From assembly GCF_057098645.1 (NCBI RefSeq), contig NZ_CM169472.1: 64,000 bases of DNA, one strand, 5' to 3'. The notes beneath the pieces were generated by a model, which saw nothing but the letters and a program-made list of their open reading frames with translations, made no database searches and was not told the origin of the DNA. Numbering within the stretch: position 1 is the first letter of the stretch; every line of letters begins with the position of its first letter. The position numbers were made by a program, and so were the translations under genes. Positions 17,186 to 41,331 of the stretch are shown piece by piece.

Positions 17186-17261
17186 TGGTGGCCCTTGCTG
17201 GATTTGAACCAGCGACCTGGCGATTATGAGTCGCTCGCTCTCACCACTGAGCTAAAGGGCC
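17186..17261 (-). tRNA. tRNA-Ile(CAU) / tRNA-Met-type (ileZ-like)
   Basis: GGCCCTTTAGCTCAGTGGTGAGAGCGAGCGACTCATAATCGCCAGGTCGCTGGTTCAAATCCAGCAAGGGCCACCA folds as a cloverleaf, anticodon CAT. Confidence 0.7.
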
Positions 17262-39735: not shown

Positions 39736-39775
39736 AATAAAAACTTGTAAAATCAGTTAGTTTACCCTTAATCCC
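39736..39775. other. Approximate attR junction
   Basis: Lies between the int stop and the point where mlrA coding homology resumes; exact core cannot be set without attL. Confidence 0.4.
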
Positions 39776-40452
39776 TGTCACGTTACGCGCGTGGCAGAGG
39801 CGTTACGGATTGCTGAAACCGCAACGGACAGACGGCGGTCATCGGCTGTTCAACGATGCCGATATTGACCGGATCCGCGAGATCAAACGCTGGATCGACA
39901 ACGGCGTGCAGGTCAGCAAAGTTAAAATGCTGCTCAGTAATGAAAATGTTGATGTGCAGAACGGCTGGCGCGATCAGCAAGAAACATTACTGACTTACCT
40001 GCAAAGCGGCAATCTACATAGCCTGCGAACGTGGATCAAAGAGCGCGGTCAGGATTACCCCGCCCAGACACTCACCACACATCTGTTTATTCCTCTGCGC
40101 CGACGGCTTCAGTGCCAACAACCGACTCTCCAGGCGCTGCTGGCGATCCTCGACGGCGTACTGATCAACTACATCGCCATTTGTCTGGCTTCGGCACGTA
40201 AAAAACAGGGTAAAGATGCGCTGGTGGTTGGCTGGAATATTCAGGATACCACCCGTCTGTGGCTGGAGGGCTGGATTGCCAGTCAACAAGGATGGCGCAT
40301 TGATGTCCTCGCCCACTCGCTCAATCAACTACGCCCTGAACTATTCGAAGGCCGTACATTGCTGGTGCGGTGAAAATCGAACCTCCGCCCAACAGCAGCA
40401 ACTCACCAGTTGGCAAGAACAAGGCCATGATATTTTCCCACTCGGCATTTAA
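39771..40452 (+). pseudogene. mlrA: mlrA (yehV), 5'-truncated by prophage insertion, apparent frame break near 40370
   Basis: Translation IPVTLRAWQRRYGLLKPQRTDGGHRLFNDADIDRIREIKRW... lacks the first ~15 codons; C-terminal CGENRTSAQQQQLTSWQEQGHDIFPLGI is in another frame. Confidence 0.75.
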
Positions 40453-40511
40453 TGATTCGTTAACAAATGCGCTTTACTGTACAATCCTTTCGTTAACATA
40501 AGGAGTGCATT

Positions 40512-40619
40512 ATGCGCATAGCTAAAATTGGGGTCATCGCCCTGTTCCTGTTTATGGCGTTAGGCGGAATTGGTGGCGTCATGCTCGCAGGTTATACCTT
40601 TATTTTGCGTGCTGGCTAA
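40512..40619 (+). CDS. yohO: Small membrane protein YohO
   Basis: [35 protein letters not shown]. Confidence 0.7.
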
Positions 40620-41331
40620 GCGCCTGCACCAGCCTTTCAAACAGGCGGTCTGCGATGATCGCCGCCAGTGCCACCAGTAACGCCCCCTGGATCACATACG
40701 CGGTATTAAATCCGCTAAGCCCGATGATGATGGGCGTACCCAGCGTGCTGGCCCCTACCGTTGAGGCGATCGTCGCCGTACCAATGTTGATAATCACCGA
40801 AGTTCGCACGCCCGCCAGAATCACCGGAGCCGCCAGCGGTAGCTCGACCTTACGCAGTCGCTGACCACGACTCATTCCCATACCTTTCGCAACTTCTGTC
40901 ACGCTGGCATCAATCGCTCCCAGCCCGGCAAGTGTCGCCTGCAGGACGGGCAGCACACCGTAAAGGATCAAGGCGATAATCGCTGGTTGCAGACCAAAGC
41001 CGATCACCGGAACGGCGATCGCCAGCACTGCGACGGGCGGAAAAGTCTGTCCAACGGCGGCAATAGTTTCCACCAGTGGGCGAAATTCCGCGCCCCACGG
41101 GCGAGTGACAGCAATTCCGGCACCAGTGCCAATGATCACCGCAAACAAACTCGAAATTCCCACCAGCCAGAAATGAGCCAGTGCCAGAGCTGCAAAACTT
41201 TCTTGCTGATAAACGGGTCGTGGCAGTTGTGGGAACAAGGCAGCAAACAGCGGCTGGCTGTAAGGCAGCCAGAAAATCAGCGCCACAAACAGAGCAATGA
41301 GCCAGAACAGCGGATCGCGCAACATCTTCAT
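40600..41331 (-). CDS. yehW: Osmoprotectant ABC transporter permease
   Basis: 243-aa multi-TM permease; conserved yehZYXW order. Confidence 0.85.

Follow-up and report, generated by a model that had tools for sequence, protein, structure and literature searches.

The mlrA gene at positions 39,736 to 40,452 of a 64,000-nucleotide stretch of contig NZ_CM169472.1 (RefSeq assembly GCF_057098645.1; hereafter, the window) lies directly downstream of a prophage integrase and is read in two frames, which raises the question of whether this curli/csgD regulator has been split by the prophage, whether the frame break is a genuine mutation, and which of the two lesions came first. We consider it very probable that the locus as a whole is best explained by a prophage junction in mlrA together with a separate, heritable and recurrent slippage event at a TGGTG repeat, by which mlrA would be doubly inactivated.

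The prophage junction in mlrA

The first-pass annotation had proposed that the prophage splits mlrA, and that the mlrA reading frame resumes after int without its first 15 or so codons. Both proposals are borne out by alignment with K-12 MG1655 mlrA (b2127, 243 aa) and with the prophage-bearing strain 14EC017. Homology to mlrA begins at 39768 (TTAATCC, in a BLAST comparison with K-12), position 39736 being merely the first base past the int stop codon; codons 1-15/16 are absent, and from CCTGTCACG on the window is 100% identical to both references, except for one 5-column gap. The integrase and the att core are found directly upstream of the remnant, and the far stub of the gene can be seen in a relative, strain 14EC001. 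The features of the junction and of the remnant, in window coordinates, are as follows.

38161..38415, + strand: prophage excisionase, xisR-like, 84 aa (ORF; its syntenic counterparts in 14EC017 and 14EC001 carry the annotation excisionase family)
38449..39735, + strand: prophage tyrosine integrase, 428 aa, at the right prophage end (Pfam; annotated as tyrosine-type recombinase/integrase in relatives)
39768..39793, + strand: attR core TTAATCCCTGTCACGTTACGCGCGTG, 26 bp, common to mlrA codons 15-23 (K-12 alignment, BLAST start)
39774..40373, + strand: mlrA body, codons 17-214, then a frameshift-derived Arg and a premature TGA at 40371-40373 (translation, alignment, Pfam)
40363..40367, + strand: single remaining TGGTG unit, slippage deletion site (alignment)
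40366..40452, + strand: out-of-frame mlrA tail, native codons 216-243 and native TAA (matches the K-12 MlrA C-terminus)
40512..40619, + strand: yohO, the first intact chromosomal gene past mlrA (ORF; annotated in K-12 and relatives)

The integrase contains the Pfam domains Arm-DNA-bind_2 (2.1e-24) and Phage_integrase (5.8e-18), and Pfam DUF1233 matches the counterpart of the excisionase in related contigs; a tyrosine integrase and an excisionase located directly beside the 3′ part of mlrA constitute the arrangement by which a prophage of the mlrA/yehV site is recognized. The att core is about 25 bp long, TTAATCC(C)TGTCACGTTACGCGCGTG, with one extra C in the window copy (TTAATCCCTGTCACG vs. TTAATCCTGTCACG in K-12). 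Among the relatives, 14EC001 has a prophage of about 57 kb that carries nleA; its far junction reads ATGGCGCTTTACACAATTGGTGAAGTGGCGTTGCTTTGTGATATTAATCCTGTCACGTTACGCGCGTG followed by ACGCAAC (in shorter form, ...GATATTAATCCTGTCACGTTACGCGCGTG followed by ACGCAAC), and there, about 57 kb away, a 66-bp mlrA stub, annotated as an “incomplete” CDS, adjoins btsS. A 50-mer from the mlrA 5′ end was absent from the window in a search allowing up to 3 mismatches, as was a second copy of the att core, and the left junction must therefore lie outside the window, with the prophage reaching beyond position 1. From this one junction and from the relatives, we infer that mlrA has been split by the prophage. 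A lambdoid prophage would have integrated by tyrosine-integrase recombination into the core of about 25 bp at mlrA codons 15-23, parting the mlrA body from its promoter, its start codon and its first 15-16 codons, including helix 1 of the HTH.

The mlrA body thus carries no promoter, no native start codon and no helix 1 of the MerR HTH. In intact MlrA, Pfam recognizes MerR_1 at residues 4-72, MlrA_helical at residues 81-155 and MlrA_C at residues 162-238. The first canonical in-frame start of the remnant is the TTG at 39810, which skips 28 residues including most of the HTH, and the resulting 187-aa product retains only profile positions 26-68 of MerR_1, a complete MlrA_helical domain and 53 of the 77 positions of MlrA_C, so that the full 243-aa architecture (HTH, helical, C-terminal) is broken already by the missing MerR_1 positions 1-25. 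A promoter and terminator scan of 39500-40650 found no sigma-70-like promoter on the + strand between int and the mlrA remnant, and the number of sites was no higher than in shuffled sequence. Judged by its predicted product, the window gene is an mlrA pseudogene, although its DNA is orthologous to K-12 mlrA. In prophage-bearing relatives, PGAP calls the prophage-truncated gene a normal, non-pseudo 228-aa MlrA with an ATC start (L001, 3072-3758; L003, 3313-3999). We regard this call as a reflection of homology-driven annotation that says nothing for function; it could mislead gene-presence surveys of curli regulators.

As for the prophage itself, stx appears to be absent from it: judged from the annotated relative 14EC001, there is no stxAB between Q and the lysis genes, where it would be located in an Stx-converting phage. 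The Q-to-esterase interval (18063-14176; window segment 14288-29767) is 99.7% identical to that of 14EC001, in which only a tRNA, a TerB-family protein and a DUF3927 protein are annotated. A tRNA with a CAT anticodon lies downstream of Q at 17186-17261 (- strand), and is called tRNA-Met by ARAGORN as the sole tRNA in the interval; PGAP labels its homolog in 14EC001 tRNA-Ile (presumably lysidine-modified).

Several other features of the prophage may be mentioned. An IS3-family element occupies 29768-31082 in the early region (orfA 30697-31023, orfB 29810-30697, - strand; Pfam HTH_Tnp_1 and rve), and the same element is located about 1.2 kb away in the near-identical prophage of 14EC001, suggesting a local move or an independent insertion. 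Directly downstream of a cI-like repressor (27475-28179) there are three small genes at 28240-29703 (+ strand), in the place taken by rexAB in lambda. One of them codes for a DUF3024 protein matching the PADLOC candidate defence family PDC-S43 (E 7e-42), and the other two (162 and 206 aa) show no convincing family; together they may form a prophage-encoded defence cassette. A 590-aa ORF at 20411-22183 (+ strand), placed on the opposite strand within the nin region and hypothetical in 14EC001, matched nothing in Pfam or PADLOC and resembles cargo genes of the moron type. The portal gene at 3421-6167 (- strand) consists of two overlapping ORFs of 461 and 454 aa; its homolog in 14EC001 is annotated as “frameshifted” and related Stx phages have either two ORFs or a pseudogene, so the portal frameshift may be common to the phage lineage. 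Outside of the prophage, an IS1A present upstream of mdtQ in 14EC001 is absent from the window (53605-53613), where the BLAST segments overlap by 9 nt, the expected size of an IS1 target-site duplication.

A 5-bp deletion at a tandem repeat

By direct translation, the frame from 39738 reads a stop, 11 phage-derived codons and then PVTLRAWQRRYG...EGRTLLVR up to the TGA at 40371-40373 (also written PVTLRAWQRRYGLLKPQRTDGG...EGRTLLVR), and from 40366 the native C-terminus of MlrA, CGENRTSAQQQQLTSWQEQGHDIFPLGI, is read in another frame up to the TAA at 40450-40452 (translation of 40366-40455). The two translations agree with the initial reading, according to which the last 28 or so codons are in a frame other than that of the preceding body, with a stop at 40371-40373, and the alignment with uninterrupted mlrA, with its 5-column gap, confirms that the frame is not continuous. 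The references read TTGC-TGGTG-TGGTG-CGG at this point, and the window reads TTGC-TGGTG-CGG; in other words, the wild-type sequence at 40363, as seen in K-12 and 14EC017, is TGGTGTGGTG followed by an imperfect third unit, CGGTG, whereas the window has TGGTG. The deleted bases correspond to one unit of a perfect tandem direct repeat, and loss of one such unit is the classical footprint of replication slippage. Owing to this loss, the product ends in ...V214-R-stop, and the last 29 native residues, W215-I243, are lost. Slippage between the two perfect TGGTG units, in codons 213-216, would have removed one of them, and the ensuing -5 frameshift would take away about a third of the conserved partner-binding domain at the MlrA C-terminus.

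This deletion, Δ5, is the only indel in 21,343 columns aligned with 14EC001, the closest complete genome (99.6% over 25 kb), and there are 90 substitutions in the same columns. It is rare, being present in none of the 5,426 complete RefSeq E. coli genomes and in a few dozen contigs overall. Since prophage-bearing genomes headed the ranking of the first search, carriers of Δ5 lacking the prophage could have gone unnoticed, and the search was repeated with a chromosome-only query; its best identity in complete genomes was 99.3%, a shortfall corresponding exactly to the 5 gap columns. No report of a frameshift in mlrA was found in the literature searched.

The first-pass annotation had left open whether the break represents further decay or a sequencing error. 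If the 5-bp gap were a sequencing or assembly error in this record, with the real mlrA tail being in frame, its absence from every complete genome would follow naturally, as the deletion would be an isolated anomaly. However, the int–mlrA(Δ5) junction is present on at least 14 contigs, including GCA_029357705.1, GCA_015672185.1 and Logan assemblies of SRA/ENA runs from several projects. A collection of 15 billion proteins contains this very 187-aa product (TTG start ... LLVR), the same integrase is present wherever the contigs encoding it reach upstream, and its loci align to the window with 0 gaps, as in L006, which matches it in 14,322 of 14,323 bases. An assembly with a sole indel in 21.3 kb is, moreover, not indel-prone, and clean loss of one 5-bp repeat unit is atypical of homopolymer-type errors. 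The probability that the record is at fault is negligible: finding the same junction allele in independent assemblies and read sets excludes sequencing error, Δ5 is a real, heritable allele of a clone, and of the two original options it is decay that was right in kind. Over 14.3 kb, the window departs from the clone-mate contig L006 only in a private SNP at window 41662 in yehX (- strand), T vs. G in all 20+ related loci and K-12, corresponding to YehX L201M.

The deletion is also found in prophage-free mlrA genes. At least 24 prophage-free contigs, in which mlrA keeps its normal place between btsS and yohO, encode P0003, a 215-aa protein that has a complete MlrA N-terminus and likewise ends in ...LLVR; the flanks of these loci are of several haplotypes. 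Besides the two assemblies named above, Δ5 is carried by GCA_022974595.1 and by runs such as ERR12121972, ERR12122442, ERR9385356, ERR3905718, SRR29931313, SRR8095433, SRR10696820, ERR10686689, SRR11514719 and ERR8574081. As would be expected of recurrent slippage, mlrA genes with Δ5 belong to at least three haplotypes at the nucleotide level. The window, L015, L016 and L019-L022 have the K-12 type, L017 has that of strain 165, with 7 synonymous differences including one at 11 bp from Δ5, and L018 has a third type. Near-identical relatives without Δ5 exist for each of the two backgrounds tested, which shows that slippage has recurred: between L017 and the complete genome of strain 165 there are 2 SNPs and the 5-bp gap over 11.8 kb, and between L015 and strain HKUOPY1 there are 10 SNPs and the gap over 14 kb. 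These alignments are most simply read as slippage having occurred independently at least three times; for recombination to mimic recurrence, its tracts would have to be shorter than about 200 bp.

Order of the lesions and predicted loss of MlrA function

By speaking of further decay, the first-pass annotation had implied that the deletion followed the prophage. This order does not necessarily hold, since Δ5 also arises in intact, prophage-free mlrA and may predate the prophage. We see roughly an even chance that Δ5 came first in an intact mlrA, and that the gene was already damaged when the phage entered it. The downstream haplotype (4.56 kb) of the prophage-bearing Δ5 clone recurs in three prophage-free contigs (L019, L021 and L023), and Δ5 demonstrably arises and persists in otherwise intact genes; this haplotype, however, is one SNP away from K-12 and very common, and identity by descent is thus uncertain. 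In addition, contig L011 has the same Δ5 and the same chromosomal flank joined to a divergent prophage arm, in which 137 positions of the alignment are different (SNPs plus indels, mostly at 37750-38250; BLAST counts 125 mismatches), a pattern that fits separate lysogenisations of a Δ5 host but could also stem from prophage-prophage recombination. In the reverse order, to which we assign a real though somewhat lesser than even probability, the prophage inactivated mlrA first, Δ5 then arose as a neutral change in the inactive remnant, and the prophage-free carriers of the same haplotype have been cured or result from independent slippage. The closest complete genomes, 14EC017 and 14EC001, share prophage and insertion site with the window but lack Δ5, as this order would have it, and the recurrence of slippage at the TGGTG site makes a coincidence plausible. 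On the other hand, with 13-17 SNPs in 4.5 kb relative to the window clone, these two genomes are not close ancestors, and Δ5 establishes itself without prior inactivation of mlrA.

[quoted passage not shown] Since Δ5 truncates this domain and the lost tail is conserved, MlrA(1-214)+R is probably non-functional, and mlrA would be doubly inactivated; in the paralog BluR, the tail shows the same degree of conservation as the remainder of the domain (VW-G...W-EQG, 9/25 identities). Precise excision of the prophage would be predicted to rebuild only the truncated MlrA of 215 aa. A sequence search of the PDB found no MlrA structure, the only matches being relatives of the CarH/LitR type over residues 3-126, and a single-sequence AlphaFold2 model (mean pLDDT 60.8, and <50 for residues 165-213) was left out of the evidence, its quality being insufficient to tell what parts of the structure are lost with the tail.

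It is highly unlikely that a working MlrA-like regulator is still made from the remnant by initiation at an internal or phage-supplied start, even though PGAP lists the 228-aa MlrA of prophage-bearing relatives as non-pseudo, and the location of int upstream on the same strand makes read-through transcription conceivable. Initiation at the TTG at 39810 would cost 28 residues with most of the HTH, the scan revealed no promoter-like site, and in the window the C-terminal domain is truncated as well. The literature points in the same direction: in published work, MlrA-dependent csgD and curli expression is lost upon insertion at this site. As stated by Chen et al. (2013), who cite an earlier survey of their own, 53/55 O157:H7 strains have a prophage in the proximal mlrA coding region, and their text names absent mlrA expression from such insertions as the cause of the deficiency of O157:H7 in curli and biofilm (PMC3874044). 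The same authors reported that pUC19::mlrA restored Congo-red binding and curli in 2/4 non-O157 insertion strains, and that MlrA was otherwise extremely conserved in the non-O157 set (PMC3874044). A broader proposition, that TGGTG×2 is a loss-of-function hotspot under selection, that prophage insertion and slippage are convergent ways of silencing curli, and that Δ5 would here permanently lock the excision switch “off”, is tentative and, in our opinion, unlikely to hold as a whole.

Comparison with known systems

Prophage insertions in mlrA (yehV) of STEC have reportedly been described by Uhlich et al. in 2013, and Shaikh and Tarr are said to have used a yehV junction PCR. The mlrA prophages of O157:H7 and non-O157 STEC have the same gene, the same proximal site and the same integrase beside the mlrA 3′ part as the window, and genomes of O157:H7, O145:H28 and O55:H7 match the int–mlrA junction at 98.9%; the expected loss of MlrA-dependent csgD and curli expression would also be the same. 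Unlike the Stx1-type mlrA prophages, the closest annotated relative has nleA and carries no stx between Q and the esterase, and unlike the STEC cases, the window has a K-12-like chromosome (2 SNPs in 4.5 kb) and a second lesion in mlrA. Overall, a prophage in mlrA is already known, with the int–mlrA junction occurring in many complete genomes, and Δ5 is a new allele resulting from an ordinary kind of lesion, its remnant being ordinary pseudogene decay.

Occupancy of mlrA by a prophage is the accepted reason why many EHEC strains produce curli and biofilm poorly, and excision is the described way back. A second, cryptic lesion can close this route, in which case biofilm potential would be misjudged by yehV/mlrA junction PCR alone. 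Δ5 is easily overlooked, since Pfam still recognizes the truncated ORF as “MlrA”; in prophage-free strains, it provides a simple marker of natural mlrA loss.

Natural loss of function in the curli regulatory network is also represented by rpoS lesions in O157:H7. In soil E. coli, the network is affected by dgcE 1456delC and pdeR E620K (PMC6029578). As in such natural lesions, a small indel truncates here a component of the RpoS/DgcE/PdeR/DgcM/MlrA/CsgD cascade; unlike in them, it is mlrA itself that is affected, at a site unreported in the literature searched. With regard to slipped-strand mispairing, exactly one unit of a perfect two-unit repeat has been lost, and the loss recurs on different backgrounds. 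This two-unit pentanucleotide repeat is, however, much shorter than the tracts found in true phase-variable contingency loci, no sign of reversion was seen, and absence of Δ5 from the 5,426 complete genomes argues against high-frequency switching at TGGTG.

Finally, the locus can be compared with regulated gene integrity, or “active lysogeny”, for which mlrA is a listed case (Mageeney et al. 2020, PMC7192596). As cited in that work, excision of the prophage in the O157:H7 strain PA20 restores native mlrA (Uhlich et al. 2016, cited in PMC7192596). In the window, too, an element with int and xis splits a gene at its att core, and rejoining is possible in principle. At the sequence level, however, excision would not remake an intact ORF, as the rejoined gene would read V214-R-stop: unlike in PA20, it would keep the frameshift, and thereby become identical to the 215-aa allele (P0003) that is observed in prophage-free strains.
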